Source of the DNA: Alphaproteobacteria bacterium
Lineage (GTDB): Bacteria > Pseudomonadota > Alphaproteobacteria > RF32 > CAG-239
Reading direction: 5' to 3'
DNA length: 64,000 nucleotides
NCBI GenBank assembly: GCA_045577985.1
Contig: JAZNJJ010000026.1
Coordinates: 19,403 to 83,402, forward strand
Shown: piece by piece, positions 16,945-53,995 of the stretch
Position numbering within the stretch: the first letter of the stretch is position 1
Layout of the letters: every line of letters begins with the position of its first letter
Notes under the pieces: generated by a model
Told to the model about the DNA's origin: nothing
Databases searched by the model: none
What the model saw: the letters and a program-made list of their open reading frames with translations, nothing else
Position numbers and translations under genes: made by a program

Positions 16945-17071
16945 TTTTACCTCGTATTCATATTATTATGTTAAAAAAAATTAGGCAATAGCTATTTTAT
17001 TTACTTTTCTTTCATATAATATTGTTATTGTTAGCTATATGTTTGTAACTAGTCTATTTAAAGGTATTGCT

Positions 17072-18106
17072 ATGTTAAAAAAATTAGGAATGTTATCTGC
17101 TCTTTGTTTGACTCTGTTAGGTTGTCAATACAGTGATTTTGGTACAGATGAAATTGATACGGTTTTTCAACAACCTAATATAAAAGTACCAAATTCAATT
17201 GTAGTATGTCGAGCAAAACAATGTGCTCCAGCCAGATTATCTATGTCTAAAGAATATATTTATAATACTTTATTACATATGTTTGATAGCAATGCTCGCA
17301 GAAAAGCATTAATATGTGCCGCAGATCCGAATACTCATGCTTGTACAGAAAATTATATATCAGTTCCAATAACGGTTGGTATTACTCCAGCGTATATGTA
17401 TGTTGATGATGTTAAAATTACCGATGTATCAATTAGCAAAAAGAGTACATCTGCATTTAATTTAATATTGAATTGGAATGTATCATATAATGGTCAAACG
17501 CCAGTATGTCGTCCAAGCAAAACTTTGTTATATGCAAAAAATATTGATAATGTTATTATGGAAGACAATGGATACACCTGTAAAATGACAACCATTGGAA
17601 CCAGCACCATCAAGACATTATTTGCTATTGATTATATTGATTTAGACTATGGATATATCGGCGGTTTCTATTCTATCGGATTATCTGGACCTGCATTTGG
17701 AGGTGGAGCTGGTTACATGATGCTTCGCTTACCGGAAGAAATTACTTTGGATCCAAAAGATTTTATGGTTGATAAAGATGGAGGCGTTGTTAGAAGAGGA
17801 GATCCATATGTGAGTGCACCTCAACCAATTCCTGCCCAACAAAAAGATACATCTAAGCAAGGAGCTAGTGTTCAAGCTTCACAATCAACCACAGTTCCTA
17901 ATGTAGATACAATCATAAAATATAATCATCCTTCAAAAGATTATGATAATGCTAAAGCGGCTATTGCAAAAAAGAAAAAAGAAGATGCTGAAGCCTTGAA
18001 TTATGAAGGAGTTAAAGTTTTTCCTGTAGCTTCTACAAACAAAAAACCTCCTGTAGTTGCTCCTAAAAATAAAAACGTATTAACTGATTACAGAGAATAT
18101 AAATAA
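17072..18106 (+). CDS. hypothetical lipoprotein
   Basis: ORF 17039..18106 trimmed to MLKKLGMLSALCLTLLGCQ (lipobox). Several Cys pairs and a Gly-rich segment. No motif recognised. Confidence 0.5.
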   Translation: MLKKLGMLSALCLTLLGCQYSDFGTDEIDTVFQQPNIKVPNSIVVCRAKQCAPARLSMSKEYIYNTLLHMFDSNARRKALICAADPNTHACTENYISVPITVGITPAYMYVDDVKITDVSISKKSTSAFNLILNWNVSYNGQTPVCRPSKTLLYAKNIDNVIMEDNGYTCKMTTIGTSTIKTLFAIDYIDLDYGYIGGFYSIGLSGPAFGGGAGYMMLRLPEEITLDPKDFMVDKDGGVVRRGDPYVSAPQPIPAQQKDTSKQGASVQASQSTTVPNVDTIIKYNHPSKDYDNAKAAIAKKKKEDAEALNYEGVKVFPVASTNKKPPVVAPKNKNVLTDYREYK

Positions 18107-18358: not shown

Positions 18359-21300
18359 ATGGCAAAATTTCAGAAGTTTGTTGCAACATTTGTTGCGTTA
18401 GTAGGTATCGTTCTGTTCGGCTCATGCACAGCTGATGGTTTTGAAGATACTCGTTCGTATCCTACTCATGTGGATACAATTAAGATCGTGAAAGACCATG
18501 TTATGGTTAATGACCTCACCCATGACATCGATACGGCTTTAACAGATAAGGCCAGCGATGAAATGGAAGCTAAAATGAGAATCTACAATATCCTTGACGG
18601 AGAAGTTGTTGATTCTTTTAGTATGACCGAATATCCGACTATGGATACTCACATATACTGCCTGAAGGATAATTATGTCATTACTGAAGAGCAGATTGAG
18701 CCGGTATTGGTTTCTTCTGAACTTAGAAGAAATTATAATCGTGATCATGTGAGTTATAACGGATATGAAGAAAAAGATACTTTAATTCTGTCGTTTAACG
18801 ATGGACAGGTTGTTTCTGTTCCGGTGATTATTTATGCATTTTCAGCTGAAGTTAAAGATGATGTATGCCATTTTGGTTCAGACTCATTGATTAGTGCTAA
18901 GCTGACAAAAGTGCAAAATATTAACACCTCTAAGAACACGACTAGAGCAACTTATGTTTCAAGTGTCTTAACAACTGAGTATTCTGTAGAATTGACATTT
19001 GCAGAAAAAAACACCAAGAGAGATTCTATTTTTAATGTAAATCTTAAGACTTATGTTAATCGTAAGGTTCTCTCTGAAGATGCGATTGATAAAGTTGAAG
19101 TAATTAACAAAAATCGTAAGGTTATTGATGAAACAACTGAGCAAATCTCTTTTGATAAAATGTATACCATGAAGAGTGGTGAAGTTATCAAAGAACCATT
19201 CTCTCGCATTTTGAAAAGAGAATTTAAGGGTATAGCTCCTTATGAGAAATACGTTTCTTCATTTGATTATGCCTTTGATAAATCTAATGGTGTTGTTGTT
19301 AGCGGAAATGAAAATAGTGTCGAAAAGGAAGGTAACTGGAATGTATTCGGTAAAACTGATAAATATTCAGCAAATATTTCTAATGGAATAGAGGCTGAAC
19401 TTATTGTTACAGATTATTCTCTTTATCACGAGAGAGCCGTTTACAGAGATTCTCATGTAGAAGTTGCTTTTGGATATGAAAATGTTGAAGCTACAGAAAT
19501 AGCTAGCAATGTTTCTGCCAAAGGTTCTGATAAAGAAGGTTTTGATAAGGCCGTTCTCAACAATGAGATCAGGACTCTATATCTCGGATATACTCAAAAT
19601 TTGATGGAAGATGTATATCTTTATCAAACTGCAACGAGTATTCAGGGATATGACTTGGAAAATCCTAAACTTCAGATTCTAGATGATAAGGTTATTGCCT
19701 CAATCGATTTTGTTATCAATTATACTGATGGCAAAGACGTGAGAGAAACCGACAAAATAGAACTTCCGCGTTCTATTTCTTGCCTGACAGATTGGACTTG
19801 TATTGAAGCAAATTCAAACCAGAAGACAGATACAGCTATTGTTGTTATATCTGCTTCTAATCAAAAGAGTGAAGGTTTTTGGTCTTATAAAAATCAGACC
19901 AGAAATGTTTCAACTTTAGCTCATTTGAATTCTTCTAAACAAACCAATAAATGGTCTGTGGTTGTACCAAACGAAATTGTTTATTCTCGAGAAGGAAAAA
20001 CATATAATTTTGGAGAAATAGAATTTTTTGCAGATGAAAATGGTGCCGACGTTGTCTTCGTAAAAGAAGAAAATGGACTTTCTGTTTACAAATATACCGA
20101 TAAGTTGAATGTTATTTATGGTGAAAATACTGTGAATACATCTGCTCCAGGTACAATAAAAGTTGACGGAAAGGGTATTAAGAGTAATAGCTATAAAGAC
20201 AAGAAGATCGTTGTTAATTCAAATAACGTGATTGCTTCTCTGACATGGATTACTACTTATAATGACGGCACAGAAAAGACAGAAAGTGTTAGCAAAACAT
20301 TTCCTCGTGAACTTGTTTGCAACACAAACTGGAACTCTAAAGAAGCTAATGCAAATCAGACTACTGGTAATACAAATGTATCGATAGTTAAATCTGAGCC
20401 TGTTGTAGATGGTAATTGGGTATTCATAAAAGAAACCCGTTCAATTTCAACAACAGCAAAATTGGCTTCCTCTTCTCAGGCAAATGAGTGGACTTCTATT
20501 GATCCTAACAGCATTGTTTATACTCAAAATGGTGTAACTGTTGATTTTGGAACTTTAGATTTTTCAGCTACAAAGTCTGATGCTAAGACAACACTTGAAA
20601 GCACTGTTAAAAATGTTGAGACATATAGTTACGTTTGTACTATTAATGTAGCTTTCGGTTCTAACAGTCTTAACAGTTCGGCTCCCGGTACAATTATCGT
20701 AGAAAAAGCTCGTGAAGTTGTAGATCATGAAATTCGTGATCCAAAGCTTGTTGTTAACAGTGAAGATGTTACTGCTACATTAACATGGGCAACTATCTAT
20801 AATGATGGTACTGAAGAAACAGAATCTGTGAAGCAGAGTTTTGCAAGAAGTCTTGAAGTGTATACTAACTGGTCTTCAAAGGAAAACAATGCAACTCAAA
20901 CAACAGAATCTGCCAACACATCTTTGTTGAGTTCTAACAGTAAGAAGGAAGGTTTCTTCACTTATGTAAATGAAACCAGACAGATTACTACTCTTGTAAA
21001 TTTGGCCAGCTCTACTCAGAAAAATGGCTGGAACTCTATTGATCCAAATAGCATAGTTTATTCTCGTGAGGGTAAAACTTTTGCATTTGATAAAATTGAG
21101 TTTAGCGCATCTGAGGCAGGAGCAAACGTTAAGTTGAAAAATGAGACAGCTAATAGCTCGACTTATTCTTATACAGATAAGATAAACGTTGTTTACGGTG
21201 GCAACACTAAAAATTCAACGGCAACAGGAGAGATTATTGTGGATGTTGTTGTTTCTGGTTATGATATAACAAATCCTCAGCTTATCATTAATAACGATAA

Positions 21301-22240
21301 CGTTATCGCTAAACTGAACTGGATTACTAAGTATTCTAATGGTTCAGAAACTAGCGAGGCTATAACTAAAACTTTCACTCGCTCCTTTAATTGTTATACA
21401 AACTGGAGCTCTAAAGAAGCTAATGGCAATCAAAACACTGGTTCTGCTACGGTAAGCGTTTTGAATACTAAAGCAGAAAAAGATGGGTATTGGTCTTGGA
21501 ACGTTGAAACTCGCGATATTAAAACTATTGCAAATCTCAACTCTTCCAATCAAACCAACGGATGGAAATCTATTGATCCGAACTCAATAATCTTTACACG
21601 TGAGGGTAAAACTTATGATTTTGGAAAAGTTGATTTCAATGCTATTGAGAATGGTGCAACTACCAGTATTAAATCAGAAGATGATATGGTAATCGTATAT
21701 AATTATACTGATGTTATCAACGTAAGTTTCGGTAGCAACACATTTAATAGTTCTGCTACGGGAACAATTAATGTTGAGAAGCCATGGAATCCTGATTTTC
21801 CTGCAGATTGGGGTAAGTTTGTTAAGGCTACAGCAACTGTTTCATGTAATGAAGATGTAAAAGACTGGATTTATACATGGTCATTACATTTTGAAAATGG
21901 AACTCTTCCTGTAGTGGTTAGACGTAATGCAAATGAGCCAGAAATAAACACAAATTACTTTGAGGCCATAACTGATAGTCGTTTTAATGGCGGTTCGTAT
22001 GTTAATGGCAAGTGGGTAAATTCTATTGCTTCAGATGAAAGCAACTTTATGTTGTGGACATCTCATGAAGATAAGGTGTTTAGAATGTTTACATATCCTA
22101 CAGCAACAGCTTGGAAATGGAACAATGGCAAGAATACTGTCTATACCGACGAATTTAACTTTGAACTGAAAAATGACGGCAAGGTATTAGTCATTACAAA
22201 AAATGGTAATGAATTTGCTCGTTATAAGGCTGGTAAATAA
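18359..22240 (+). CDS. 1293-aa surface lipoprotein with four tandem modules of about 180 aa (function unknown)
   Basis: Signal peptide ending LFGSC (lipobox) followed by acidic residues (CTADGFED). N/S/T-rich beta-type sequence. Internal repeats span aa 430-1143. No Shine-Dalgarno-like purine run before the ATG. Confidence 0.7.
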   Translation: MAKFQKFVATFVALVGIVLFGSCTADGFEDTRSYPTHVDTIKIVKDHVMVNDLTHDIDTALTDKASDEMEAKMRIYNILDGEVVDSFSMTEYPTMDTHIYCLKDNYVITEEQIEPVLVSSELRRNYNRDHVSYNGYEEKDTLILSFNDGQVVSVPVIIYAFSAEVKDDVCHFGSDSLISAKLTKVQNINTSKNTTRATYVSSVLTTEYSVELTFAEKNTKRDSIFNVNLKTYVNRKVLSEDAIDKVEVINKNRKVIDETTEQISFDKMYTMKSGEVIKEPFSRILKREFKGIAPYEKYVSSFDYAFDKSNGVVVSGNENSVEKEGNWNVFGKTDKYSANISNGIEAELIVTDYSLYHERAVYRDSHVEVAFGYENVEATEIASNVSAKGSDKEGFDKAVLNNEIRTLYLGYTQNLMEDVYLYQTATSIQGYDLENPKLQILDDKVIASIDFVINYTDGKDVRETDKIELPRSISCLTDWTCIEANSNQKTDTAIVVISASNQKSEGFWSYKNQTRNVSTLAHLNSSKQTNKWSVVVPNEIVYSREGKTYNFGEIEFFADENGADVVFVKEENGLSVYKYTDKLNVIYGENTVNTSAPGTIKVDGKGIKSNSYKDKKIVVNSNNVIASLTWITTYNDGTEKTESVSKTFPRELVCNTNWNSKEANANQTTGNTNVSIVKSEPVVDGNWVFIKETRSISTTAKLASSSQANEWTSIDPNSIVYTQNGVTVDFGTLDFSATKSDAKTTLESTVKNVETYSYVCTINVAFGSNSLNSSAPGTIIVEKAREVVDHEIRDPKLVVNSEDVTATLTWATIYNDGTEETESVKQSFARSLEVYTNWSSKENNATQTTESANTSLLSSNSKKEGFFTYVNETRQITTLVNLASSTQKNGWNSIDPNSIVYSREGKTFAFDKIEFSASEAGANVKLKNETANSSTYSYTDKINVVYGGNTKNSTATGEIIVDVVVSGYDITNPQLIINNDNVIAKLNWITKYSNGSETSEAITKTFTRSFNCYTNWSSKEANGNQNTGSATVSVLNTKAEKDGYWSWNVETRDIKTIANLNSSNQTNGWKSIDPNSIIFTREGKTYDFGKVDFNAIENGATTSIKSEDDMVIVYNYTDVINVSFGSNTFNSSATGTINVEKPWNPDFPADWGKFVKATATVSCNEDVKDWIYTWSLHFENGTLPVVVRRNANEPEINTNYFEAITDSRFNGGSYVNGKWVNSIASDESNFMLWTSHEDKVFRMFTYPTATAWKWNNGKNTVYTDEFNFELKNDGKVLVITKNGNEFARYKAGK
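19646..21787 (+). repeat. four tandem coding repeats (units start at 19646, 20189, 20726 and 21257; 177-181 aa each)
   Basis: Recurring blocks N.V(I/T)A.L(T/N)W(I/A)T.YNDG(T/S)E..E...K.F.R......TNW(S/N)SKEAN..Q.T ... IDPNSI(V/I)Y(S/T)REGKT..F ... Y.YTD.INV.(Y/F)G.N..NS(S/T)A.G.I.V. Confidence 0.85.
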
Positions 22241-22340: not shown

Positions 22341-22413
22341 TTTTTTTTATTAAAAAATCTTTCTCTCACAACGTAACATCAATAGGTTAAATTTTTCTAA
22401 ATTTGAAATTTCA

Positions 22414-22445
22414 TGTCCGAAAAAAAGGAACCCTTTTTTCGGACA
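22414..22445. repeat. 32-nt palindrome B1, the exact reverse complement of A1
   Basis: TGTCCGAAAAAAAGGAACCCTTTTTTCGGACA. Ends 5 nt before the SD of the pilin-like gene. Confidence 0.9.
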
Positions 22446-22463
22446 ATCAGAAGGGAGTTTATA

Positions 22464-23096
22464 ATGACAAATAGTAATCAATCTGGTCGTTCTATGATTG
22501 AAATGTTAGGTGTTTTGGCGATTATCGGCGTATTATCTGTCGGAGGAATTGCCGGATACTCTAAAGCGATGATGAAATTCAGAATCAATAAAACTATTGA
22601 TCAAGTTTCACAAATTGCACAAAATATTAGAATTTTATATGCCAGACAGAAAAATTACGGTAGTTTGAGTGCAAAAATAGTATATAAAGCAAATTTGGCA
22701 CCAAGAGAAATGTTTGAAGATGGTTCTGGTAGTTATGGCATGACTAATGCTTTTGGTGGTAGAGTTGGATTTGAAACAGCATCAAAAAGAGCTTCTCAAG
22801 ATAGTAAAGCTTTTGTTATTTCATTATATGATCTACCGGAAGAAGCGTGTATTGAACTGGCTACGCAAGATTGGGGTGGTGGCGAAGCTTCCGGTTTAAT
22901 TTCTGTAGGGATTGATACAAATTCTCGTCCTATATCTACGAGAGAAAACTGTGCAGGTGAAAGCGGTAGTGGTTATGCTATTGCTTGTGCAGGTGGTTCT
23001 GATGTTCCAGTTCCAATGCCAATAGATGTGGCTGTTGATGCTTGTAGTAATATTACAGGGTCCTCAATGGGGCGTTTAACATTCAAATTCTACTAA
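22464..23096 (+). CDS. type IV pilin-like protein, paralog P1 (atypical class III signal peptide)
   Basis: ORF 22413..23096 trimmed to MTNSNQSG|RSMIEMLGVLAIIGVLSVGG (8-aa leader ending in Gly, Glu at +5, 20-residue hydrophobic helix). C-terminal Cys pair (EEACIELATQDWG ... DVAVDACS). Confidence 0.7.
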   Translation: MTNSNQSGRSMIEMLGVLAIIGVLSVGGIAGYSKAMMKFRINKTIDQVSQIAQNIRILYARQKNYGSLSAKIVYKANLAPREMFEDGSGSYGMTNAFGGRVGFETASKRASQDSKAFVISLYDLPEEACIELATQDWGGGEASGLISVGIDTNSRPISTRENCAGESGSGYAIACAGGSDVPVPMPIDVAVDACSNITGSSMGRLTFKFY

Positions 23097-25092: not shown

Positions 25093-25165
25093 TTTTTTTC
25101 ATTAAAATTTGTTCTCCTCGTAACGTAACATCAATAGGTTAAAATTTTCTGAATTTAAGATTTTG

Positions 25166-25197
25166 TGTCCGAAAAAAGGGATCCTTTTTTTCGGACA
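25166..25197. repeat. 32-nt palindrome B2 (one C-to-T difference from A2)
   Basis: TGTCCGAAAAAAGGGATCCTTTTTTTCGGACA, located just upstream of the SD. Confidence 0.9.
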
Positions 25198-25215
25198 ATA
25201 GAAAAGGAGAATATA

Positions 25216-25839
25216 ATGAAGAAAAATAACCAATCAGGTCGTTCAATGATTGAAATGCTCGGAGTTTTGGCGATTATTGGGGTATTATCTGTAGGCGGAA
25301 TTGCCGGATACTCAAAGGCGATGATGAAATATCGAATCAATAAGACGATTGATCAAATTACACAAATTTCACAAAATGTTAGAGCTTTATACGCAAGACA
25401 AAGACAAAAAAGATATCGTAATTTATATGAGGGAATTTTATATAAAGCAAATTTAGCTCCAAAGGAAATGTTTGGTTCGGGAAATATAATGACTAACGCT
25501 TGGGGGCAAAGATTTATGGTGGGGTCTGAAGGAGATGATCAAGAAAGCTTTGGTATTGCTACCCTTGTTCCTGAAGAAGCGTGTATTGAACTTGCTACAC
25601 AAGATTGGGGGAGTCGTGATACGACAGGGTTAATTGGTGTAATAGTTAGAGAGTATGATCTATCTGGTCCTAAACCCGATTTATCCACTGGTACAATAGG
25701 TAATAATTATGCTGTAGCCGTTCCCGGCGGCTCTAAAGTTTCCGTGCCTATGCCTGTTGATATAGCTGTAAATGCTTGTTCTCTTTCATCTGGTGATTAC
25801 TTTCCTGGTTATAAAGAGATTGGATGGGTGTTCCAATAA
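25216..25839 (+). CDS. type IV pilin-like protein, paralog P2, inserted between dnaJ and dnaK on the opposite strand
   Basis: ORF 25165..25839 trimmed to MKKNNQSG|RSMIEMLGVLAIIGVLSVGG. The N-terminal 60 aa are nearly identical to P1. Conserved EEACIELATQDWG and VPMPVDIAVNACS. Confidence 0.7.
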   Translation: MKKNNQSGRSMIEMLGVLAIIGVLSVGGIAGYSKAMMKYRINKTIDQITQISQNVRALYARQRQKRYRNLYEGILYKANLAPKEMFGSGNIMTNAWGQRFMVGSEGDDQESFGIATLVPEEACIELATQDWGSRDTTGLIGVIVREYDLSGPKPDLSTGTIGNNYAVAVPGGSKVSVPMPVDIAVNACSLSSGDYFPGYKEIGWVFQ

Positions 25840-27925: not shown

Positions 27926-29413
27926 TTATTCAACACTTATTGTATAGCCGTTTTGACGTTCCATTAAATTACATGCTATTTCAAAATCATTGGCATTGCA
28001 TGAATATATTGTATATAAAACATCTCCACTTTTTACATAATCACCAACTTTTTTATGTAAGTCTATTCCTGAACCTAAATATTGTGTTGCACCGGCATAA
28101 ACTCCGATTTTATTAATAATGACATTATTAATCGCTTCAACAACTCCATCAAATGCAGAAACAACCTCGCGAGAATATTTTCCCAATTTGGGAACTTTTT
28201 TTAATCCTTGTGTATTTACAATTTGTTGAAAACTTTCTAAAGCTCTGCCACTTTCTAAAAGTTCTTTGGCTACAGCGTAACCTTTACCACCTCTTAATTG
28301 AGGATCAAATTCTAAGACCCTACCCGCTAAGAATAAAGATTTTTCTTTTAGATCTTGTGGGGCATCCTTATAATTTCTCAGAACTTTCATAACATCTCGG
28401 GCTTCTAAAACTGCGCCTATTCCGTTTCCTATTGGCTCACTACCATCAGTTATAACTGCATCAATTTCAATACCCAGCATATCACCGACATATTCTATTT
28501 GCTTGCGAATTCGCATTGCCTCATTGGTACTATGAATACGAGCCTTCTCTCCTACAGGGATATCCAAAACTAAGTGAGTTATTCCCATTGACATCATCAT
28601 TGATAATATGGATGCTATGACAAATTCGTTTTGATCTATTCCTAATTGACGACGAACATCATGTAATAATCGATTGGCTCTAGATATATAAAGAGCATCA
28701 TAACATACAATAGCTCCATTATTTGTGCGTAAGTGTTTTTGAAATTCGTTATCTTTAAGGTTTATTTCAGCCATACAACCTATTGTATCAGCAACACCTG
28801 CACATGATGTCAAAGAGTGAATACACGGTTTTGCTATGGGTAGTCCGTATGCAGCAACAATGGCCAAAACAATTAAATCTGTTTTATTGCCGGGTATTCC
28901 ACCTAAACAATGGTGATCAACTACTATACTTTTTTCATCCCAATGTAAAACCTTATTGCCAACTAATGCTTCTGTTAAAGAAACTAATTCAGAAGCACTC
29001 ATAAATGATGAACAAGCAACTAAAAAGGCTGCGATATCCATTTTTGAATATCTGCCTGAAGATATATCTTGCATAATATCTACATATTCAGATGATGTTA
29101 ATATATCTCCATTTATTTTGCGCTTTATGGCGTTTATACTTGGAGATGGGGATGATAAGCTTACACTTACCTCTATTCCTTCTGGCAAACCAAGTGCTGA
29201 AAATGCTTCATCATTTAATGCTATCTCATCTAGACCAACAATGCTCTCATCTTCAACAATTTGCAAAAAAGCATATACTGTTTTATTTTCACCTTGAATT
29301 TCAAGTTTGGTTATTTTGTTGATGTCATCAAGTTTATAAACTGTACAATTTTTGTTTATAATTGCAAAATTTTCACCAAACGATTTTAAAGATAAATGTT
29401 TTAGTTTGAGCAT
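27926..29413 (-). CDS. thymidine phosphorylase family protein (long ~500-aa form with N-terminal extra domain)
   Basis: Helical-bundle domain (LTSSEY..IMQDISSGRYSKMDIAAFLVA), an alpha/beta domain (DHHCLGGIPGNKT) and a PYNP C-terminal domain (VGDYVKSGDVLYTIYS). 14-nt gap after pilin-like P4. Confidence 0.7.
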   Translation of the reverse strand: MLKLKHLSLKSFGENFAIINKNCTVYKLDDINKITKLEIQGENKTVYAFLQIVEDESIVGLDEIALNDEAFSALGLPEGIEVSVSLSSPSPSINAIKRKINGDILTSSEYVDIMQDISSGRYSKMDIAAFLVACSSFMSASELVSLTEALVGNKVLHWDEKSIVVDHHCLGGIPGNKTDLIVLAIVAAYGLPIAKPCIHSLTSCAGVADTIGCMAEINLKDNEFQKHLRTNNGAIVCYDALYISRANRLLHDVRRQLGIDQNEFVIASILSMMMSMGITHLVLDIPVGEKARIHSTNEAMRIRKQIEYVGDMLGIEIDAVITDGSEPIGNGIGAVLEARDVMKVLRNYKDAPQDLKEKSLFLAGRVLEFDPQLRGGKGYAVAKELLESGRALESFQQIVNTQGLKKVPKLGKYSREVVSAFDGVVEAINNVIINKIGVYAGATQYLGSGIDLHKKVGDYVKSGDVLYTIYSCNANDFEIACNLMERQNGYTISVE

Positions 29414-29427
29414 TGTTATCTATACCA

Positions 29428-30051
29428 TTATCTAAATGACATTATTATTGTATTTGTATTACCACATGTATCTGTAGCAGTTCCTATACCCATAGGAGCT
29501 GGGTTTGTTGAATGCCCTGCTACAGCTAAATTAGCGGACAGTGAAGTGTTTAATCCAGATTGGATTGCACTATCAACTGAGGTTGGAGCATCCATATTAA
29601 CTGCTATGCCTCTAAAACCACTTGATGATGGACCACCCCAATTATTTGTAGCTATCTGCATACAAATATCTGTGCTTACATTTTCTAATTTTATTGAAAA
29701 TAAAACTCTTGGAGAACCAATGTAATAGATTGAATAATCAACATCTCCTGCACCAGTAAAACTAATGTTATCAGGATTAGATTCATCTTCGGTATATAAA
29801 AATGTGTCAGGTACAGCTTTAGCTTTTTTTACATAAGAATTAATTTGTGCTCCAGATGTTCCTTCATAATCTCTAGCAACAGTACGGACTTTACTGGCAA
29901 GTGTTGATACCTCATCCAATACTTCATTGATAGTGCTACTTGTTTGCATTTTATTTACTAAATTAAAACCACCAACAGATAATATTCCAACAATAGCCAG
30001 TACACCAAGCATCTCTATCATTGATCTACCTCTTTGGTAAAAATTTTTCAT
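29428..30051 (-). CDS. type IV pilin-like protein, paralog P4
   Basis: MKNFYQRG|RSMIEMLGVLAIVGILSVGG. Conserved C...IATNNWGG...SGF.GIAV and a C-terminal Cys. SD AAGGAG upstream. Confidence 0.7.
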   Translation of the reverse strand: MKNFYQRGRSMIEMLGVLAIVGILSVGGFNLVNKMQTSSTINEVLDEVSTLASKVRTVARDYEGTSGAQINSYVKKAKAVPDTFLYTEDESNPDNISFTGAGDVDYSIYYIGSPRVLFSIKLENVSTDICMQIATNNWGGPSSSGFRGIAVNMDAPTSVDSAIQSGLNTSLSANLAVAGHSTNPAPMGIGTATDTCGNTNTIIMSFR

Positions 30052-30078: not shown

Positions 30079-30678
30079 TTATTTACAACCTTTATACCAT
30101 AACTGAATAGTGTTATTTGAACCATTAGTACAATTTTCAACCGCTTTATCAACTGACATCGGATAATTTGATGAAAGAGAACTTACAGCAAAATCTTTGT
30201 CGGCACAATCACTTGTACAACTTTTAAAATATGAACCAACATCACTGTTGCCAATTGCAACACCTATCATTCCAGATGTTCGTCCTGTTCCCCAATCTGC
30301 GGTAGCTAATTTGATGCAACTGTCGTCAGAAAGATTGCTAATATTGATATTGAAATAGTCATTATCTCCATTAATCTGATATATTGAATCCATTATTCCA
30401 ACATATGTATTTGAACCGGAATCATAATATAAATTTGTTGGATAAGCATTTGACTTATACAAAAACAATGTATATGTTCTATAAGCTTTTTCATATTTGC
30501 AAGCAAACTTTTTTGCATATCTTGCTAAATCTGCTGTATCAGATAAAAGTTGTGCTTCGCGATGAGTTTGCATTGCTTTACCTATTATACCAAAACCACC
30601 AACAGAGAGTACTCCGACTATTGCTAAAACACTTATTGTTTCTAGCATTGTCCGACCAAGTTCACTTATTTTGAGCAT
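30079..30678 (-). CDS. type IV pilin-like protein, paralog P3
   Basis: MLKISELG|RTMLETISVLAIVGVLSVGG. Conserved DDSCIKLATADWGTGRTSGMIGVAI and a C-terminal Cys. SD GGAG upstream. Confidence 0.7.
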   Translation of the reverse strand: MLKISELGRTMLETISVLAIVGVLSVGGFGIIGKAMQTHREAQLLSDTADLARYAKKFACKYEKAYRTYTLFLYKSNAYPTNLYYDSGSNTYVGIMDSIYQINGDNDYFNINISNLSDDSCIKLATADWGTGRTSGMIGVAIGNSDVGSYFKSCTSDCADKDFAVSSLSSNYPMSVDKAVENCTNGSNNTIQLWYKGCK

Positions 30679-30707: not shown

Positions 30708-30728
30708 TAGCCCCAAAATATGGGGCTA
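30708..30728 (-). other. 8-bp GC-rich stem-loop without a U-tract between the 851-aa gene and P3
   Basis: TAGCCCCAaaataTGGGGCTA. No T-run follows it on the minus strand, so it could be a processing or stability hairpin rather than a terminator. Confidence 0.5.
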
Positions 30729-30734: not shown

Positions 30735-33290
30735 TTATTTTCGTTCTTCAGGTTTCATTGCTTCAGGAGCTTTCTGAATTTTCTTAATTTGCTCAGTGAC
30801 TGGCTTATATACAGTTTGTTGCCATGGACTTTCTTCAACATATTCATGCCCACAAATACTGATACCAAGACTACGTAATGCTGTTTCAGTTGGGATAAAC
30901 ATATCTAATCCATCATCTGTTTTTGTGCCAGAATGAGCCATACCATTTATTGTACAATCTTTGTAAATTAAAGCTCCGCCAACTGTAACATTTTGAATGA
31001 ATGTGTTAGCCAGTATTTCTGCTCCTTTATCTTCTGTATATCGATATCCTTCAATTCGAGCACTATTTTCTAAATAGTCTTCGCCATTTTTAAAGTCAGA
31101 TACATCTAATAGACCTACAGTTAAGAACCCACTTTTACCAACTTCTGGTAAGCTTAAGTTAAGAGCAAGAGGAGTATATTCTGTGCTTTTATCAAGCATG
31201 AACAAAGCTGTATTTTTGCTCGGATTAATGCGTACGGCACGAGCCTTTAATTCGTCATTACGAATTGTTTTAATATCATAACTGTTGTTTTCTTTATCTA
31301 CTAAATCTCCTGCAGTTAAAACGAATCTATCTGAGATTAATAGTCCTGCACCTTTTCTTCCATTTGGACTGGTTATTTGAACTATTGATGAACGCATACG
31401 ATGTATGGTTTCAGGTGTTAATGCTTTGCATGGATCTGTTTCTACTACACAGAAATTATCTAAGCTTTTTGCATCTCCTGTTTCAACCCATGTATCGTCG
31501 ACAACTTGGCACATTCCATCGTCTTTCACGTTACCATTTTCATCTATACAAGAATTTATGATATCAAAACTGCTGTATACATTTCCGTCTTCGAAGATAA
31601 CATCACATCCTTCTGAAACAACCAGACCATCTGATATTACTCCGCCAGAATCTAATACGACATCGCAAACTTCTTCATTTATAACAATTCCATCGCTGTT
31701 TACACCACCCTCAATAGTAATACCATCAGCTTTAACTCCACCATCTGCAACAATGGCATCGCAAGTTTCTTTGGTGAGAATTATTCCATCAGCCACAACA
31801 CCGCCTTTTGCTAATATATTATCACAAACCTCTTCAGTGATCGTAATTCCATCAGCAGTTACTCCGCCTTTCGCAACTATAGCATCACAGGTTTCTTCTG
31901 TAAGGATGATTCCATCAGCTACAACCCCACCTTTATTTGTTATATTATCACAAACTTCTTCCGTAATAATAATTCCGTCAGCATTTGTTCCGCCACTAGA
32001 AACAATTGTGTTGCAAATTTCTTCTTTGATAGAGAAACCATTTCCGTTAACTCCACCATCTTCATAAATCTCAACAACTGGAATAGCTGAGGTTGTTGGC
32101 GGACAGCTACAAGTACAAACACCATCTTCATGGAAAACTGTTACAGGTTCAGGTATAACAGGTGTAACAGGAACTGTTTCGGCAATAGGAGTAAATTGAA
32201 CAGCTTGTTCACAAGTTTGTGGACATACGCAAGGAGGACATGGACGACATTTAGAAATATCTGCTCCTGGACGACCTAACTCACAATCTTTGGCTTGATC
32301 ATATTCTTTTCTAAATCCACATTTTAATGGATTTAAGGCTCTTTCTTCTTCAATTAATGCATTACGTTGCATTGCCATCTCTGTAGGGCTTATACGTTGC
32401 ATTAATCTATCTTCAAAACCAGGTAGATTGCGTAAATTACTTGTTGCATCAGCAAATGCACGTTCAATTAATTTAACTTCACCATTTATTTCCCCGTTGT
32501 ATAATTCTCCATAACCAACACTTTCACCTTTCCAATATACTTTATTTTTTGTTAAATCCATTAAACGCCAGGTGATAGTTATTTCTGAAGAACCACTTCT
32601 AATATCTTCTTTTTTAGCTTCATCCCAATTATATTCATCACAAATATTCATAAAATAATCGGTAATCTCTGCCGTTAAAACATATTCAGGAAGCTCTGAA
32701 GGAACTTCTTCTAAACACAAATCTTGAGGCATTGGCAAAACCTTATAACAATCACCAACTACTTCTTCAAATACTGTATTAAAGGCAATATTTTTTTCCA
32801 TAATACGCCCCTTATTCAATACAGCTTCCTTATCAAAACGGCGGCAACCGAAAATACGGAATCGATAATTTCCTAATTTATTGGTATAAGGAGAATCTAA
32901 TTCACTATCTTTTATTCTAAAGTCTACATGAGATAAAGTAATTGGAGCCATTTGACAACAATTACGTTCTACCGCCTCAGCAACAACAGGATTATATGGA
33001 ACATAGTTTTTAACTTTTACACGCTCTACGCATTTTTTGCAGGTACCAGGGAAAAGACTGCCGTCTTTTGTGCAACGAACACATGGGCCTCCAGGAAAAA
33101 GACTTCCATCTTTATCTGTTGAACAATTAGGACAAATTCCTCCCGGAAATAAACTTCCATCCTTATTTAATCGCACATTTTGAGGAACGTTATTTTCATT
33201 ACCATATCCGGCAACAACTGTGCCGGCAGTAAGAATACTAAATCCTAATACAGCGGATAATATATATAACAATTTGTTATGTTTATTCAT
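30735..33290 (-). CDS. 851-aa secreted Cys-rich repeat protein with a C-terminal degenerate trypsin-like domain
   Basis: Signal peptide; 3x KDGSLFPGG-C..C (aa 43-83); Cys/Pro-rich linker (CRPCPPCVCPQTC); about seven 21-aa repeats GGV.ADGI.(I/L)TEE.CD.I..K (aa 412-570); C-terminal GAGLLISDRFVLTAGDLV ... NTALFMLD ... VTVGGALIY, which resembles a chymotrypsin-fold domain with all three triad positions replaced. Confidence 0.7.
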   Translation of the reverse strand: MNKHNKLLYILSAVLGFSILTAGTVVAGYGNENNVPQNVRLNKDGSLFPGGICPNCSTDKDGSLFPGGPCVRCTKDGSLFPGTCKKCVERVKVKNYVPYNPVVAEAVERNCCQMAPITLSHVDFRIKDSELDSPYTNKLGNYRFRIFGCRRFDKEAVLNKGRIMEKNIAFNTVFEEVVGDCYKVLPMPQDLCLEEVPSELPEYVLTAEITDYFMNICDEYNWDEAKKEDIRSGSSEITITWRLMDLTKNKVYWKGESVGYGELYNGEINGEVKLIERAFADATSNLRNLPGFEDRLMQRISPTEMAMQRNALIEEERALNPLKCGFRKEYDQAKDCELGRPGADISKCRPCPPCVCPQTCEQAVQFTPIAETVPVTPVIPEPVTVFHEDGVCTCSCPPTTSAIPVVEIYEDGGVNGNGFSIKEEICNTIVSSGGTNADGIIITEEVCDNITNKGGVVADGIILTEETCDAIVAKGGVTADGITITEEVCDNILAKGGVVADGIILTKETCDAIVADGGVKADGITIEGGVNSDGIVINEEVCDVVLDSGGVISDGLVVSEGCDVIFEDGNVYSSFDIINSCIDENGNVKDDGMCQVVDDTWVETGDAKSLDNFCVVETDPCKALTPETIHRMRSSIVQITSPNGRKGAGLLISDRFVLTAGDLVDKENNSYDIKTIRNDELKARAVRINPSKNTALFMLDKSTEYTPLALNLSLPEVGKSGFLTVGLLDVSDFKNGEDYLENSARIEGYRYTEDKGAEILANTFIQNVTVGGALIYKDCTINGMAHSGTKTDDGLDMFIPTETALRSLGISICGHEYVEESPWQQTVYKPVTEQIKKIQKAPEAMKPEERK
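31581..32057 (-). repeat. about seven tandem 63-nt (21-aa) coding repeats inside the 851-aa gene
   Basis: GGVVADGIILTEETCDAIVAK / GGVTADGITITEEVCDNILAK and similar units. They also produce a long antisense shadow ORF (31405..32067). Confidence 0.85.
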
Positions 33291-33301: not shown

Positions 33302-34825
33302 CTATACCTGTTTTGCGGGCATAACATATCTATACGATAATGCCTCTGCTATGTGTACTTTAGACACATTTTTTTCATTTTGCAAGTCTGCAATCGTTCT
33401 TGCCAACTTCAATGTTCGATGATATGCCCTTGCAGACATCTTCATTTTGTCTGCAAAGTTTATCAAAAGTTCTTTCGCATCAGCTGTTAATTGCGTAACT
33501 TCTTCAAGTATATCGCCTTTAAGTTGAGAATTTGTACGCAAATTAGGACAACCTAGCTGTATAAAACGCTCTTGTTGAATCTTTCGAGCCTTAATTACTC
33601 TGTTTCTGATTACTTCTGAACTTTCACCTTTTTTTACTTCAGAAATATCCCAAGGACTGACCGGAGGTACTTGTATATGTATATCGAATCTATCCATCAA
33701 TGGACCAGAAATTTTTGATTGATATTCTTCGGCACATTTTGGAGCTCTAGTACATTCTTGTCCATTATGTCCTAAATATCCGCAACGACAAGGGTTCATC
33801 GCAGCAATGAGCTGGAAATTTGCAGGATATTGAGTATGACAATTTACTCGTGAAATTGTAACGTAACCAGTTTCAATCGGCTGTCTTAGAGCCTCCAATG
33901 TTGCTCGATTAAATTCAGGTAATTCATCTAAGAACAGCACTCCATTATGTGCTAAAGAAATTTCACCAGGTGTCCCTTTTCGACCACCGCCGACTAAAGC
34001 AGGAGTTGAAGCATTGTGATGAGGATCTCGATATGGACGATCAAAACTAATTTCACTATCTTTTAATTCTCCGGCAATAGAATGAATCATACAAGTTTCC
34101 AAAGCTTCTTCGGTTGTTAAAGGAGGTAGGATAGTTGTTAATCTTGACGCCAACATGGATTTACCAGCTCCAGGAGTGCCAACCATTAATAAATTATGAG
34201 CTCCTGCCGCTGCAATTTCTAATGCTCTTTTAGCCGTTTCTTGCCCTTTAACATCTGACATATCTAAGTCGGATATCGGACTCTTTTTCTGTTTTGCAAT
34301 TGGATAAGGAAGCTGTTGAACTCCTTTAAAATGATTTATTAACGACAATAAATCCGGAGCTGCGACAATATCTTTCAATCCAGACCACACCGCCTCACTT
34401 CCTTGCCTTTCAGGACAAATTAAACCTTTATGTTTACGATTTGCATGAATAGCGACAGGGAGGACACCATTGACTGATAAAATAGATGCATCTAATCCCA
34501 ACTCACCAACAACAACATACCCCATTATATCTTCGGCAGGTATAATTCCCATTCCTACTAACAATGCTGTGGCAATCGGCAAATCAAAATGAGAGCCCTC
34601 TTTTAATAAGTCTGCCGGAGCTAGATTAATGGTTATGCGTTTTGCCGGTATTTCTAAGCCTATAGTGTTTAGAGCTGCTCGAACTCTTTCCTTGCTTTCT
34701 GCAATTGTTTTATCAGGAAGACCGACAATATTAAAAGCGGGTAATCCTGATGATATTTGCAACTGCAAATCCACGTCTAAAGTAGATAATCCATTAAAAG
34801 CGATAGTATTTACACGAGCTAACAT
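33302..34825 (-). CDS. comM: ComM/YifB Mg-chelatase-like AAA+ ATPase
   Basis: N-terminal Lon-protease-like fold start (MLARVNTIAFNGL...GLPAFNIVGLPD), Walker A GTPGAGKSM, Walker B VLFLDELPEF and a C-terminal Mg-chelatase subunit ChlI domain. Start trimmed to 34825. Confidence 0.9.
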   Translation of the reverse strand: MLARVNTIAFNGLSTLDVDLQLQISSGLPAFNIVGLPDKTIAESKERVRAALNTIGLEIPAKRITINLAPADLLKEGSHFDLPIATALLVGMGIIPAEDIMGYVVVGELGLDASILSVNGVLPVAIHANRKHKGLICPERQGSEAVWSGLKDIVAAPDLLSLINHFKGVQQLPYPIAKQKKSPISDLDMSDVKGQETAKRALEIAAAGAHNLLMVGTPGAGKSMLASRLTTILPPLTTEEALETCMIHSIAGELKDSEISFDRPYRDPHHNASTPALVGGGRKGTPGEISLAHNGVLFLDELPEFNRATLEALRQPIETGYVTISRVNCHTQYPANFQLIAAMNPCRCGYLGHNGQECTRAPKCAEEYQSKISGPLMDRFDIHIQVPPVSPWDISEVKKGESSEVIRNRVIKARKIQQERFIQLGCPNLRTNSQLKGDILEEVTQLTADAKELLINFADKMKMSARAYHRTLKLARTIADLQNEKNVSKVHIAEALSYRYVMPAKQV

Positions 34826-34826
34826 C

Positions 34827-35360
34827 TTACCACCTTGGAACATTTTCTCCACTACGCCAACGACGAGACGGATATACTCCTCTCTTCAACGTATCATATT
34901 TTGCAGACATACGCGGAATATTACTTAATCTTACATAGCAAGAGTTTTCAAGACGCTTAACACATTTTTCTACAGCTTCTTCAGGTCCACGACAATATGC
35001 CAAAATTCTAGTATTAGGATCTTGTAATACTACCTGATTTCTGAAATATTTGTTATTTTCAACATCTGGAAATTCTCCTTCAATTTCATCAGGATTAAAT
35101 TCCTTTGTCATGAACTCTTGAGATGTTTCAGTTGTAACAAAATCTGAACAAGCTGGAACTTCATATTGCCCCTGTTCATCATAAACGACTACGGTTGTTT
35201 TATTTTCACATTCTGGAACTAAAAACTCTTTTTCTTCTAAAGTTACATCTGCTCCATATTTCACCTCTTTAGATGGTAGCCTATGATAACTGTCTATTTC
35301 TACACACCCTGTGGTAAAAAATACGAAAAATAATATCAAAATTTTACAAATTTGCTTCAT
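34827..35360 (-). CDS. hypothetical lipoprotein (first gene of the comM / pilin-like cluster)
   Basis: Lipobox FFTTGC; acidic, with several Cys. Its stop lies 1 nt before the comM start. Confidence 0.5.
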   Translation of the reverse strand: MKQICKILILFFVFFTTGCVEIDSYHRLPSKEVKYGADVTLEEKEFLVPECENKTTVVVYDEQGQYEVPACSDFVTTETSQEFMTKEFNPDEIEGEFPDVENNKYFRNQVVLQDPNTRILAYCRGPEEAVEKCVKRLENSCYVRLSNIPRMSAKYDTLKRGVYPSRRWRSGENVPRW

Positions 35361-47753: not shown

Positions 47754-48727
47754 TATTTATCCTCTAAATTCCAGGTTGTTCGTATAATCTCATCTATATC
47801 TGTATATTTAGGTTCCCATCCTAAAAGTTCTTTTGCTAAATCGTTTGTAGCAATAACTATTGACGGATCCCCTGCTCTACGAGGTGCAAAATCATAGTTT
47901 ACTTTACGTCCAGTTACACGTTCAGTGGATTTAATTATTTCTAAAACTGATGTACCTTTATTTGTTCCTAGATTGATAATATGAGATTTTGGTTCTTGCC
48001 AGAGTTTTTTTATTGCGGCAACGTGAGCTCTTCCTAAATCTTCAACATGAATATAATCACGAATACAAGTGCCATCCGGTGTATCATAATCATTACCAAA
48101 AACATGAACTATTTCTCTTTTACCCGTTATAACTTCCATAATTACAGGAACTAAATTTTGTGGATTTATTTCTTTTCCACGAATACTTCCATCTGATGCA
48201 TAACCAACTGCATTAAAATAACGTAATGCGATAAAATTGAAATCTTTTAACTTGCTATACCATTCCATAACGCGTTCAATTTCAACTTTACTAAAACCAT
48301 AAAAGCTCATCGGATTTATCGGATGCTTTTCATCTAATGGCATATATTGAGGCATTCCATATGATGCAGATGTTGAGGAAAATACAATATTCTTAACTCC
48401 ATTATTGACCATTGCATTAAAGATGTTTATAGAACCACAAATATTATTTATAGCATACATTTGAGGTTTTTCCATCGACTCTCCTACAGCTTTTTTTGCA
48501 GCTAGATGCACAACAGCATCAAAACCTTCAGACATAGTCTTTTCTAATTTTTCAACATCTAAAATATCGCCTTCAATAAACTTTGCTTCTTGAAATAGAT
48601 TGCAACGTTGTCCTGTTGAAAGGTTATCATAAACCGTTACGTTAAAATTTTCCTCCAATAATGATTTTACGACATGGCTACCTATATATCCAGCACCACC
48701 TATAACCAATATTTTTTTATCTGACAT
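47753..48727 (-). CDS. galE: UDP-glucose 4-epimerase
   Basis: ILVIGGAGYIGSH Rossmann motif, YG.SK catalytic motif (FYGFSKVE) and a DGTCIRDYIHV.DL region. Start trimmed to MSDKK (AAGGAG upstream). Confidence 0.85.
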   Translation of the reverse strand: MSDKKILVIGGAGYIGSHVVKSLLEENFNVTVYDNLSTGQRCNLFQEAKFIEGDILDVEKLEKTMSEGFDAVVHLAAKKAVGESMEKPQMYAINNICGSINIFNAMVNNGVKNIVFSSTSASYGMPQYMPLDEKHPINPMSFYGFSKVEIERVMEWYSKLKDFNFIALRYFNAVGYASDGSIRGKEINPQNLVPVIMEVITGKREIVHVFGNDYDTPDGTCIRDYIHVEDLGRAHVAAIKKLWQEPKSHIINLGTNKGTSVLEIIKSTERVTGRKVNYDFAPRRAGDPSIVIATNDLAKELLGWEPKYTDIDEIIRTTWNLEDK

Positions 48728-48795
48728 GATAATCTCCTTTGTTTTGTTGAATGTAGGATATAGCTTTTTTGCATATTTTTGTTTTTTTATACCCA

Positions 48796-48804
48796 TTATC
48801 CACA
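48796..48804. promoter_or_regulatory. perfect consensus DnaA box TTATCCACA in the galE-dnaB divergent intergenic region
   Basis: Exact 9-mer read in the sequence, about 80 nt upstream of the dnaB ATG. Confidence 0.4.
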
Positions 48805-48883
48805 AGATAAATTTTTTTTGCGTTCCTTTTTTTTGTTTTATAACGTAGAGAAAATTAAAAAAGTATATATAAGGATCAATGTA

Positions 48884-50356
48884 ATGGAAAAATTAGATGC
48901 AGCAAAACTCCCTAAAAATATTGAAGCAGAACAGGCTCTTATTGGCGCTATATTAGCTAATAACAAAGCATATGAAAAAGTTTCTGAGTTTTTAAAAGCA
49001 AACCATTTTGCTGATGCAACGCATCAAAAAGTTTTTGACGTCATGACTAAACTTATAGGAAAAGGTCATGTCGCGGATGTTATTACTCTTAAGAATTTTT
49101 TTGAACAAGAAGGTACATTGAATGAAGTTGGGGGATTTCCTTATTTAGTAAAATTAGCTGATAGTGCATCTCCATTAACAAATGTCGAATATTATGCTCA
49201 ATTTATATATGATAAATATTTACGAAGAGAGTTAATACATACCGGCTATGAGATTGTAAATAATGCTTTAGAAGAAAACATCGAATCTACAGCAACTGAC
49301 CAAATTGAACAAGCTGAAAAGGCATTATATGTAATATCTGATCAAGGTGATGCTCAAGGCGGTTTTGTAGATTTTTCTACAGCTTTGGGGGCGTCATTAG
49401 CAACAATTGAAAAAGCTTACCAAAAAGAAGGAAAGATATCTGGTACTTCTACTGGACTATCAAAACTTGATTATAAAATAGGTGGATTAAACGAATCCAA
49501 TTTAATTATTTTAGCCGGTCGTCCGGCTATGGGAAAAACCGCATTAGCAACTAATATTGCATATAATGTTGCTGAGTTATTTTCCAGAGATAAAGATATT
49601 CCGCCAGAGAATCGTGGCGTAGCTTTCTTTTCTCTTGAAATGTCTGCCGATGAATTAGCATCTCGTATATTATCTACCGTAACTCAAACTTCCAGCCAAA
49701 AAATGCGTAACGGCGCATTAGATGCAGCTGAATTTACGAGAATTGCCGCTGCTGTACGAGAACTGGAAAGCATTCCTATGTATATAGATGATACACCGGG
49801 AATCAGTATTAATGCGATAAGAACCAGAGCAAGAAGATTAAAAAGAAGCAAGGGATTAGGATTGGTTGTTATTGATTATATTCAATTGATTTCTGGTACA
49901 GGAAGCAAAAAAAGTGATGGAAACCGTGTGCAAGAAGTTGCTGAAATTTCAAGAGGTTTGAAAATTCTAGCTAAGGAACTAAAAATCCCGGTAATAGCTC
50001 TTTCTCAATTAAATCGTGGCGTTGAAGGACGTGAAGATAAAAGACCAGTGATGTCCGACTTAAGAGAATCCGGATCTATTGAGCAAGATGCAGATATTGT
50101 AATGTTCGTATATAGAGAAAATTATTATATTCATAATGCAGAACCTAAAATGCAAGAGGGCGATACTCCAGATAAATTCCAGAAAAAACATGATGAATGG
50201 GTTATAAGAGACAGAGAAACTGCAAATGTTGCAGAAGTGATTATAGGTAAGAATCGTCACGGTTCAACTGGTCCTGTTAAACTATTCTGGAATGGAGAAT
50301 TTACTCAATTTGGCAATTTAGCTGAAGAAGATAAAATGGCAGAACAAAGAGGTTAA
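48884..50356 (+). CDS. dnaB: replicative DNA helicase DnaB
   Basis: LP.NIEAEQALIGAIL N-terminus, Walker A GRPAMGKTA, Walker B VVIDYIQL, and LSQLNR / RESGSIEQDAD motifs. Start trimmed to MEKLD. Confidence 0.93.
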   Translation: MEKLDAAKLPKNIEAEQALIGAILANNKAYEKVSEFLKANHFADATHQKVFDVMTKLIGKGHVADVITLKNFFEQEGTLNEVGGFPYLVKLADSASPLTNVEYYAQFIYDKYLRRELIHTGYEIVNNALEENIESTATDQIEQAEKALYVISDQGDAQGGFVDFSTALGASLATIEKAYQKEGKISGTSTGLSKLDYKIGGLNESNLIILAGRPAMGKTALATNIAYNVAELFSRDKDIPPENRGVAFFSLEMSADELASRILSTVTQTSSQKMRNGALDAAEFTRIAAAVRELESIPMYIDDTPGISINAIRTRARRLKRSKGLGLVVIDYIQLISGTGSKKSDGNRVQEVAEISRGLKILAKELKIPVIALSQLNRGVEGREDKRPVMSDLRESGSIEQDADIVMFVYRENYYIHNAEPKMQEGDTPDKFQKKHDEWVIRDRETANVAEVIIGKNRHGSTGPVKLFWNGEFTQFGNLAEEDKMAEQRG

Positions 50357-50358
50357 AA

Positions 50359-51921: not shown

Positions 51922-52024
51922 TTGATCACGATTAAACTTGACTTAAAGTTTTAGAACTTTTATCGTGTTGGTACGATGCGAATGATCGTATTCGTGTAAT
52001 GTAAATTGTAAAGGAATATAGCTC

Positions 52025-52636: not shown

Positions 52637-52655
52637 CTATTGAAAACTTTATTTT

Positions 52656-52684
52656 AGGCGATACACATTGTATCGCCTTTTTTG
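52656..52684 (+). terminator. rho-independent terminator
   Basis: AGGCGATACacattGTATCGCCT followed by a T-run. Confidence 0.8.
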
Positions 52685-52785
52685 TTAATCACATTTGTTA
52701 CAAACAAGTAACTTTTTGTGTGTTGCAAGAAAAGAAAAAAAATTGTAGATTAACCGCAGTTAAAACATTTTGAGAGGATAATAAT

Positions 52786-53946: not shown

Positions 53947-53960
53947 AATAAATATATTTC

Positions 53961-53995
53961 AAAAAAAACAACCGATTAAATCGGTTGTTTTTTTT
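53961..53995. terminator. bidirectional terminator
   Basis: ACAACCGATtaaATCGGTTGT flanked by A8 and T7. Confidence 0.75.

Follow-up and report, generated by a model that had tools for sequence, protein, structure and literature searches.

Among bacterial domains of the HtrA type (MEROPS S1C; Trypsin_2, PF13365), as in HtrA, DegP, DegS, and DegQ, only a few catalytically dead examples have been studied, including MamO and the RsgI9 sensor. In MamO, a degenerate HtrA-like protease has been repurposed for non-catalytic roles (PMC4794232), the S1C domain of RsgI9 has been described as protease-like and cellulose-binding (PMC12203970), and a proteolytically inactive HtrA has been reported to keep chaperone-like activity (PMC10715036). 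Here we describe a protein of 851 amino acids (aa), hereafter the target, which is encoded in a stretch of 64,000 nucleotides (nt), the window, from contig JAZNJJ010000026.1 of the genome assembly (GCA_045577985.1) of an uncultured alphaproteobacterium from the gut. Its C-terminal domain is predicted to be of the S1C type, and all three catalytic positions carry other residues. The explanation we lean towards is that the target is a Sec-exported, non-catalytic protein of the cell envelope, which descends from two-domain lipoprotein proteases of the S1C type and would serve in a binding or scaffold role.

With HtrA, DegP, DegS, and DegQ, the C-terminal domain of the target shares the protease fold and a common register at the three catalytic loops. 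However, the target differs from these proteins in that the His-Asp-Ser triad is lost, there is no PDZ domain, the Pfam match falls below the gathering cutoff, and a CsgG/LptE-like domain is located upstream. Specifically, within the C-terminal region (aa 633-800; nt 31394-30893), Trypsin_2 matches aa 647-776 with an E value of 0.0089 and a score of 17.2 bits compared to a cutoff of 27.6, and an NCBIfam scan of the target yielded nothing meaningful. The same Pfam model matches 10 of the 15 proteins in a family alignment (A1) at E ≤ 0.01, the best at 3.5e-7. Neither Pfam nor NCBIfam matched a PDZ domain in the target, in which only a 36-aa tail follows the protease fold. The AlphaFold2 model of aa 575-851 has a mean predicted local distance difference test (pLDDT) score of 65, with values of 81-88 in the first barrel. 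Foldseek comparison of this model with the PDB gave 936 matches at E ≤ 1e-3, all of them of the S1C or HtrA type with a TMq of about 0.5, led by the RsgI9 S1C domain (1.7e-9), HtrA1, DegS, DegP, DegQ, MarP, and MucD. At the level of the predicted structure, these matches show that the domain has the chymotrypsin fold of the S1C (HtrA) type. When PDB sequences were searched directly with a profile of the family, only HtrA1 was returned, at an E value of about 1.6, a match that is in the right register and not significant on its own.

A first-pass annotation of the window, made from the sequence alone, had proposed that this trypsin-like domain is dead, with His replaced by Asp, Asp by Asn, and Ser by Val. 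The trypsin-like fold and the substitutions are both borne out, the former by the Foldseek matches and by the hhalign comparison with active relatives described below. The register that places D662, N693, and V770 at the catalytic positions was agreed by three methods, namely a weak alignment to HtrA1, a MAFFT alignment with active relatives, and a profile-profile comparison by hhalign. The substitutions also hold across the whole family of long proteins to which the target belongs. When 257 fetched domains were aligned to one hidden Markov model (HMM), the triad positions of the long family read DNV (94 proteins), DNI (35), NNI (9), DNL (8), or minor variants, and never HDS; HDS was read in 70 short relatives. 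It follows that the triad was lost long ago and that its loss is fixed across the long family, while the domain has stayed highly conserved. The flanks of the former nucleophile loop (Q766, T769, G771, and L774) are invariant in the 15-member alignment. The fixed triad loss and the conservation of the domain and of this loop argue that the region of the former active site has been kept for a use other than catalysis.

Of the described dead domains, MamO resembles the target in being alphaproteobacterial and in having an HtrA-derived domain with a degenerate triad and a non-catalytic use. However, MamO keeps the His and the Asp, has Thr at the Ser position, and carries a di-His metal site, whereas the target reads D, N, and V at the three positions. 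MamO also has a second, transporter-like domain. The NCBIfam MamO model (NF040961) does not match the target, and MamO and the target family arose independently. The S1C-NTF2 ectodomain of RsgI9 from Clostridium thermocellum (PDB 7sjy) is the best structural match (TM 0.53) and is an example of an S1C domain that binds a ligand. Unlike the target, RsgI9 is an anti-sigma factor of Firmicutes with an NTF2 partner domain; the identity is 17%, and the architecture and genetic context are unrelated.

In the homolog search, more than 1,635 clusters matched at E ≤ 1e-3, and every one is unnamed or labelled 'hypothetical protein' and comes from metagenome-assembled Alphaproteobacteria. A scan of one genome per species located relatives in 242 species genomes. 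Among the 80 of these species that were listed, nearly all are uncultured Alphaproteobacteria of the human gut, the rumen, and other animal guts, and a few bins carry other taxon labels. Members of the long family match no Pfam or NCBIfam family beyond the weak Trypsin_2 hits, and a literature search for the target architecture or a described family found only the MamO and inactive-HtrA precedents. The family is unannotated, and the earlier view of an undescribed architecture is consistent with these results. In the 15-member alignment, a signal peptide is followed by a variable N-terminal stretch, one to five KDGSLFPGG-type units, a strongly conserved central domain, a poorly conserved Cys/Pro-rich spacer, and a second strongly conserved region (aa ~575-851 of the target) with an invariant tail. 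Every element listed in the first-pass annotation, from the signal peptide to the C-terminal domain, was found in the translation.

An exhaustive search of representative proteins with the family profile recovered 483 proteins. Many of these have a length of about 430-460 aa and align with the central as well as the C-terminal domain. These shorter relatives have lipoprotein signal peptides, match Trypsin_2 with E values of 1e-28 to 1e-32, give strong Do-family matches, and keep the LTNxHVV, RDVAL, and GNSGGP motifs. Where their sources name them, the names are 'serine protease' or 'serine protease Do' (e.g. MCK5296163.1, 'serine protease [Alphaproteobacteria bacterium]', and JGI 'serine protease Do'). 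An hhalign comparison of the target family with 20 active relatives gave a probability of 99.94% and an E value of 7.4e-37 over 389 columns that span both domains. The two groups have the same order of an N-terminal domain (N-domain) followed by an S1C domain, with about 22% aligned identity. Unlike the target, the active proteins carry a lipobox and an intact His-Asp-Ser triad, and they are without the Cys-rich N-terminal units, the long spacer, and the conserved C-terminal tail.

The N-terminus of the target reads MNKHNK, then a hydrophobic stretch, and then VVA followed by G, with no lipobox, and no lipobox-like motif was found in the first 40 aa of any of 115 long-family members. Three intermediates (P0146, P0150, and P0151) combine a lipobox, the N-domain, and a linker with a dead S1C domain. 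These sequences form a clear evolutionary series, in which lipoproteins of about 440 aa that are still active come first, lipoproteins with a dead S1C domain are intermediate, and the anchor-less, dead type with Cys-rich repeats represented by the target comes last. A protein from another lineage (P0257, 619 aa) has two copies of the N-domain and a degenerate triad (GRRVV, LDLAL, and GTLGGP). Its triad degenerated independently, which suggests repeated loss of catalysis in the protease family.

The central domain is the most conserved part of the protein in the 15-member alignment. It had been set aside in the first-pass annotation as a domain of about 230 aa without a nameable match, and this has to be revised, because the profile search and hhalign reveal homology to the N-domain of the ~440-aa lipoprotein S1C proteases. 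No Pfam family matches this region in the target or in the active relatives, and sequence comparison indicates a new, unnamed domain that is common to active and dead members. The AlphaFold2 model of aa 88-350 (pLDDT 76) contains a long antiparallel sheet packed with helices. Foldseek matches in the PDB include CsgG (4e-5), DUF330 (XCC0632), CT253, Cj1090c, CC_3750, LptE, PelC, GNA1162, and HpaA. The E values for these matches range from 4e-5 to 5e-3 and the probabilities are near 1, but the TM scores are 0.3-0.48, the root-mean-square deviations are 7-16 Å, and the identities are 7-13%. We take the predicted alpha/beta fold to resemble that of small outer-membrane lipoproteins of the CsgG/LptE/PelC and DUF330 type, many of which form envelope assemblies or dock on them, at the level of fold only, and not as a member of their families. 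In contrast to these lipoproteins, the target is without a Pfam match here and without a lipid anchor.

The spacer between the two globular domains is 46-271 aa long across the family (median 89), and that of the target is the longest. It contains the Cys/Pro clusters CRPCPPCVCPQTC (aa 348-360) and CTCSC (aa 392-396), followed by seven regular 21-aa units (aa 433-569, one of them truncated) that are preceded by a degenerate unit at aa 411. At the DNA level, Tandem Repeats Finder detects two periods, one of 63 nt (4.2 copies) and one of 126 nt (2.2 copies, 76% matches). The approximately seven repeats noted in the first pass are thus real, but they are not a feature of the family, since most homologs in the 15-member alignment are without them. 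Given this distribution and the length of the target spacer, the repeats are best described as a lineage-specific expansion of a variable spacer rather than as a defining module. Because of their absence from most homologs, we also reject the idea that they are a binding domain of the family. An antisense open reading frame (ORF) of 220 aa (31405-32067, forward strand) lies wholly inside the repeat region; most likely it is no gene but a consequence of the composition of the repeats.

Other short segments are conserved to different degrees. The KDGSLFPG(G)xCxxC units occur in 0-5 copies across the family. Within 10 kb on either side, the KDGSLFPGG motif is confined to the target gene in the 83 loci searched, and it was not found in other genes of the window or of these loci. 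The Cys-containing segment before the protease fold (aa 575-632) and the C-terminal tail are both modelled with low AlphaFold2 confidence. In the 15-member alignment, V597, D598, D599, T600, W601, and C614 are invariant in the former and S821, Q824, T826, Y828, P830, T832, R850, and K851 in the latter.

We propose that the ancestor of the target was an outer-membrane-type lipoprotein that joined a CsgG/LptE/PelC-like N-domain to an active S1C domain. Its lipid anchor would have been replaced by a plain signal peptide and short, Cys-containing KDGSLFPGG-CxxC units, an inserted spacer, variable and repeat-prone, would have come to separate the two domains, a conserved tail would have been gained at the C-terminus, and the His-Asp-Ser triad would have changed to Asp or Asn, Asn, and Val or Ile. 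In the resulting protein, which would be located in the periplasm or close to the outer membrane, the N-domain might dock to an envelope partner or an oligomer, and the spacer would determine how far the two domains can reach from each other. The dead S1C domain may then hold a peptide or protein ligand in the former substrate cleft and act as an adaptor, a holdase, or a regulator. The target gene would be co-transcribed with comM and a small, clade-specific lipoprotein gene. Both globular domains are under strong purifying selection, with many invariant residues, which argues for binding, and not cleavage, as the most likely mode of action. The coordinates of the target, its parts, and its nearest neighbours are collected in Table 1.

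Table 1. Features of the target gene and adjoining genes in the window, with the evidence for each.
Feature	Position	Strand	Evidence and remarks
Target ORF, 851 aa, ATG start	30735..33290	-	translation
Sec-type signal peptide, aa 1-27, no lipobox	33210..33290	-	translation
Three KDGSLFPG(G)xCxxC units, aa 43-87 (starts at aa 43, 60, and 75)	33030..33164	-	translation, alignment
Conserved central domain, aa ~95-345	32256..33008	-	alignment, hhalign, AlphaFold2 with Foldseek
Cys/Pro-rich variable linker, aa 346-410	32061..32255	-	translation; aligns poorly across the family
21-aa GGVxADGIxxTEExCDxIxxK repeats, aa 411-569	31584..32060	-	Tandem Repeats Finder, translation
Conserved Cys-containing segment before the protease fold, aa 575-632, including VVDDTW	31395..31568	-	alignment
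Predicted S1C (HtrA-type) pseudoprotease domain, aa 633-815	30846..31394	-	Pfam Trypsin_2, Foldseek, hhalign
D662 at the catalytic His position	31305..31307	-	HtrA1, MAFFT, hhalign, and 257-domain alignments; family members read D, N, or G
N693 at the catalytic Asp position	31212..31214	-	same alignments as D662; invariant in the 15-member alignment
V770 at the catalytic Ser position, within QNVTVGGAL	30981..30983	-	MAFFT, hhalign, and 257-domain alignments; family members read V, I, or L
Conserved C-terminal tail, aa 816-851, SPWQQTVYKPVT...ERK	30738..30845	-	alignment
comM/yifB (Mg-chelatase-like AAA+), immediately upstream of the target	33302..34852	-	Pfam Mg_chelatase (5e-94), ChlI, Mg_chelatase_C
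Small lipoprotein gene, lipobox FTTGC, C-terminus YPSRRWRSGENVPRW, first of the three-gene module	34827..35360	-	translation, tblastn
Pilin-like gene 1, N-terminus G followed by RTMLE, downstream neighbour of the target in a single subclade	30079..30678	-	weak PilS and prepilin-type matches
Pilin-like gene 2, N-terminus G followed by RSMIE	29428..30051	-	TIGR02532 17.0 bits (cutoff 16.3); N_methyl E 0.003

The target gene shares an operon with comM and the gene for the small lipoprotein. In a tblastn search of 83 loci with the neighbours from the window, comM was directly upstream of the target in essentially every locus with upstream DNA, and the small lipoprotein gene was upstream of comM in most loci. 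In 72 of 81 loci, the earliest in-frame ATG of the target falls in the range of -77 to +22 nt relative to the comM stop codon. The same lipoprotein-comM-target order is present at a distant locus (L084), which encodes the intermediate P0146; the small lipoprotein there has the C-terminus YPSRRWRDGENTPRW and shares the strongly conserved C-terminal motif YPSRRWRxGENxPRW. The genes for intermediate P0150 and for an active relative (P0222) do not adjoin comM. The small lipoprotein family is restricted to the clade and has no Pfam family, and a homolog search with it found only unnamed proteins of the same clade. In the window, the 3ˊ end of the small lipoprotein gene overlaps the longest comM ORF (GTG at 34852), and thus the true comM start is probably further downstream. 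Scans for promoters and terminators gave results no better than shuffled controls.

The window as a whole has a G+C content of about 33% and carries housekeeping genes (dnaK, dnaJ, suf genes, secDF, dnaA, dnaN, and recF), and it is therefore chromosomal. The minimum of the cumulative GC skew falls near 48-50 kb, with dnaA, dnaN, and recF at 56.5-60.4 kb. A replication origin is probably present inside the window (~48000-58000).

Downstream of the target, two pilin-like genes follow, as the first-pass annotation had observed, but the co-occurrence does not extend to a strong general link. Of the 66 loci with at least 1.5 kb of downstream sequence, 42 have pilin-like genes downstream, and the other 24 share no common downstream partner. 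A pilus cluster adjoins the target module only in two loci from one species (L003 and L078), where genes for a secretin, PAP_PilO, T2SSE, and T2SSF (positions 1-7883 of L003) are directly upstream of lipoprotein-comM-target. A PilT-like ATPase gene is located downstream of the pilin genes (14017-14997 of L003). Neither Pfam scans nor tblastn with the machinery proteins of L003 detected pilus machinery in the 64-kb window. In other words, the linkage to comM and the small lipoprotein gene is general, and that to pilin genes is clade-specific.

The pilin-like genes of the window have surroundings of their own. In addition to the two in Table 1, paralogs are present at 22413-23096 (+) and 25165-25839 (+), so that a region of about 9 kb contains four, and dnaJ, dnaK, and a thymidine-phosphorylase-like gene lie among them. 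Their N-termini have a G followed by near-identical RSMIEMLGVLAI in three cases and by the related RTMLETISVLAI in the fourth, and two of the four score as PilS/Bundlin-type (type IVb). Two lipoprotein genes are located directly upstream of the pilin gene at 22413, one of 355 aa with the lipobox LLGC (17039-18106, +) and one of 1293 aa with the lipobox FGSC (18359-22240, +). Their products have no Pfam family and are possible pilus-associated large proteins. The thymidine/pyrimidine-nucleoside-phosphorylase-like gene (27926-29413, -) is divergent, lies between the pilin genes and dnaK, and contains three Pfam domains with E values of about 1e-9 each; a homolog follows the pilin-like genes, at most 3 kb downstream of the target, in 16 of the 66 loci. 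Between the target and the first pilin-like gene, starting 7 nt past the target stop codon, is a hairpin (30708-30728) with an 8-bp G+C-rich stem formed by TAGCCCCA and TGGGGCTA and a 5-nt loop. No T-run follows the hairpin, which could be an RNA stability element or a partial termination element.

This gene neighbourhood invites two other explanations. The target could be a type IV pilus-associated adhesin or a pilus-secreted protein, displayed or secreted by way of the pilus system of the neighbouring pilin genes, in which the dead protease domain has become a module for binding to hosts or surfaces. The adhesin idea was already raised in the first-pass annotation, and what recommends it is gene adjacency, in the form of the pilin-like genes immediately downstream here and in 42 of 66 loci, the four paralogs within 9 kb, and the machinery genes that flank the module in L003 and L078, together with a variable, repeat-rich spacer of the kind typical of surface proteins. 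Support from adjacency is weak, however, and we regard this explanation as unlikely. The protein is conserved at the 24 loci without an adjoining pilin gene, its ancestors and intermediates are lipoproteins of the periplasmic type, the pilus machinery is missing from the window, Pfam detects no PilY1/PilC-type domain in the target, and the hairpin intervenes before the first pilin gene. Somewhat less probable in our view is that the target is the envelope part of a ComM-linked module for DNA uptake or natural transformation, in which the pseudoprotease and the small lipoprotein would be periplasmic and ComM would act on incoming DNA in the cytoplasm. The gene order is kept in more than 80 loci (with comM in essentially all and the lipoprotein in most) down to about 35% target identity and at P0146, the target start overlaps the comM stop or is at most 22 nt away in 72 of 81 loci, and many loci have pilin genes downstream, which competence systems require. 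However, comM/yifB is widespread, also in bacteria that are not known to be transformable. Moreover, no DNA-binding motif or competence-family match was found in the target or the lipoprotein, P0150 does not adjoin comM, and synteny beside the rpsF-rpsR-rplI operon suggests a housekeeping neighbourhood. The more specific proposal of an unrecognised lipoprotein-ComM-pseudoprotease module, in many lineages with adjoining type IV pilins, that takes part in DNA uptake or in coupling the envelope to the cytoplasm during transformation in gut and rumen Alphaproteobacteria is improbable.

Two further alternatives concern the chemistry of the protein itself. Its 35 Cys residues, among them three CxxC units, a CC pair, and those of CRPCPPCVCPQTC, could bind transition metals or shuttle disulfides in the periplasm, perhaps together with the dead protease domain; 12 of them are invariant across the 15-member alignment, and in MamO a degenerate HtrA-like domain that binds metal sets a precedent. 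It nevertheless seems doubtful that the target is a metal-binding or redox protein, because the linker Cys residues are not conserved and vary in number from 4 to 24, the second Cys of the CxxC unit is lost in some relatives, and the target has no CxxCH heme motif and matches neither the NCBIfam MamO model nor any metal-binding family. The conserved Cys residues could equally form structural disulfides. It is very unlikely that the target is still an active hydrolase with a non-canonical nucleophile or base, such as the invariant T769 paired with D662. T769 adjoins the position that the catalytic Ser once held, the oxyanion loop retains its GG, and in a few relatives Ser has returned to the place of the nucleophile (DNS). 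Yet no long-family member in the 257-domain alignment has a His at or near the base position, all three alignment methods place T769 one residue before the nucleophile position, and MamO, with Thr at that position, is inactive.

Several points weigh against the reading that we prefer, that of a non-catalytic envelope protein descended from lipoprotein proteases. The analysis establishes the fold, the ancestry in active proteases, the family-wide triad loss, the export signal, and the operon, whereas the location of the protein, its binding of a ligand or partner, and its scaffold role are inferred, and because the lipid anchor is gone, attachment to the outer membrane is conjecture. AlphaFold2 confidence for the protease domain is only moderate, with the mean pLDDT of 65, and the fold matches of the central domain have low TM scores (0.3-0.48), such that the CsgG/LptE-like assignment applies to the fold level only. 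Also, the 35 Cys residues with 12 invariant positions could mean metal or redox chemistry for which this reading does not account, and since ComM is cytoplasmic, the operon link could stem from conserved synteny rather than from a common function.

Because HtrA-type pseudoproteases are already known from bacteria, the finding does not overturn current concepts. What is new is the combination of domains, the descent from active lipoprotein proteases, and the conserved operon with comM. This large unannotated family, its new N-domain, and its tightly conserved comM operon offer concrete starting points for studying the cell envelope of a gut lineage about which little is known.

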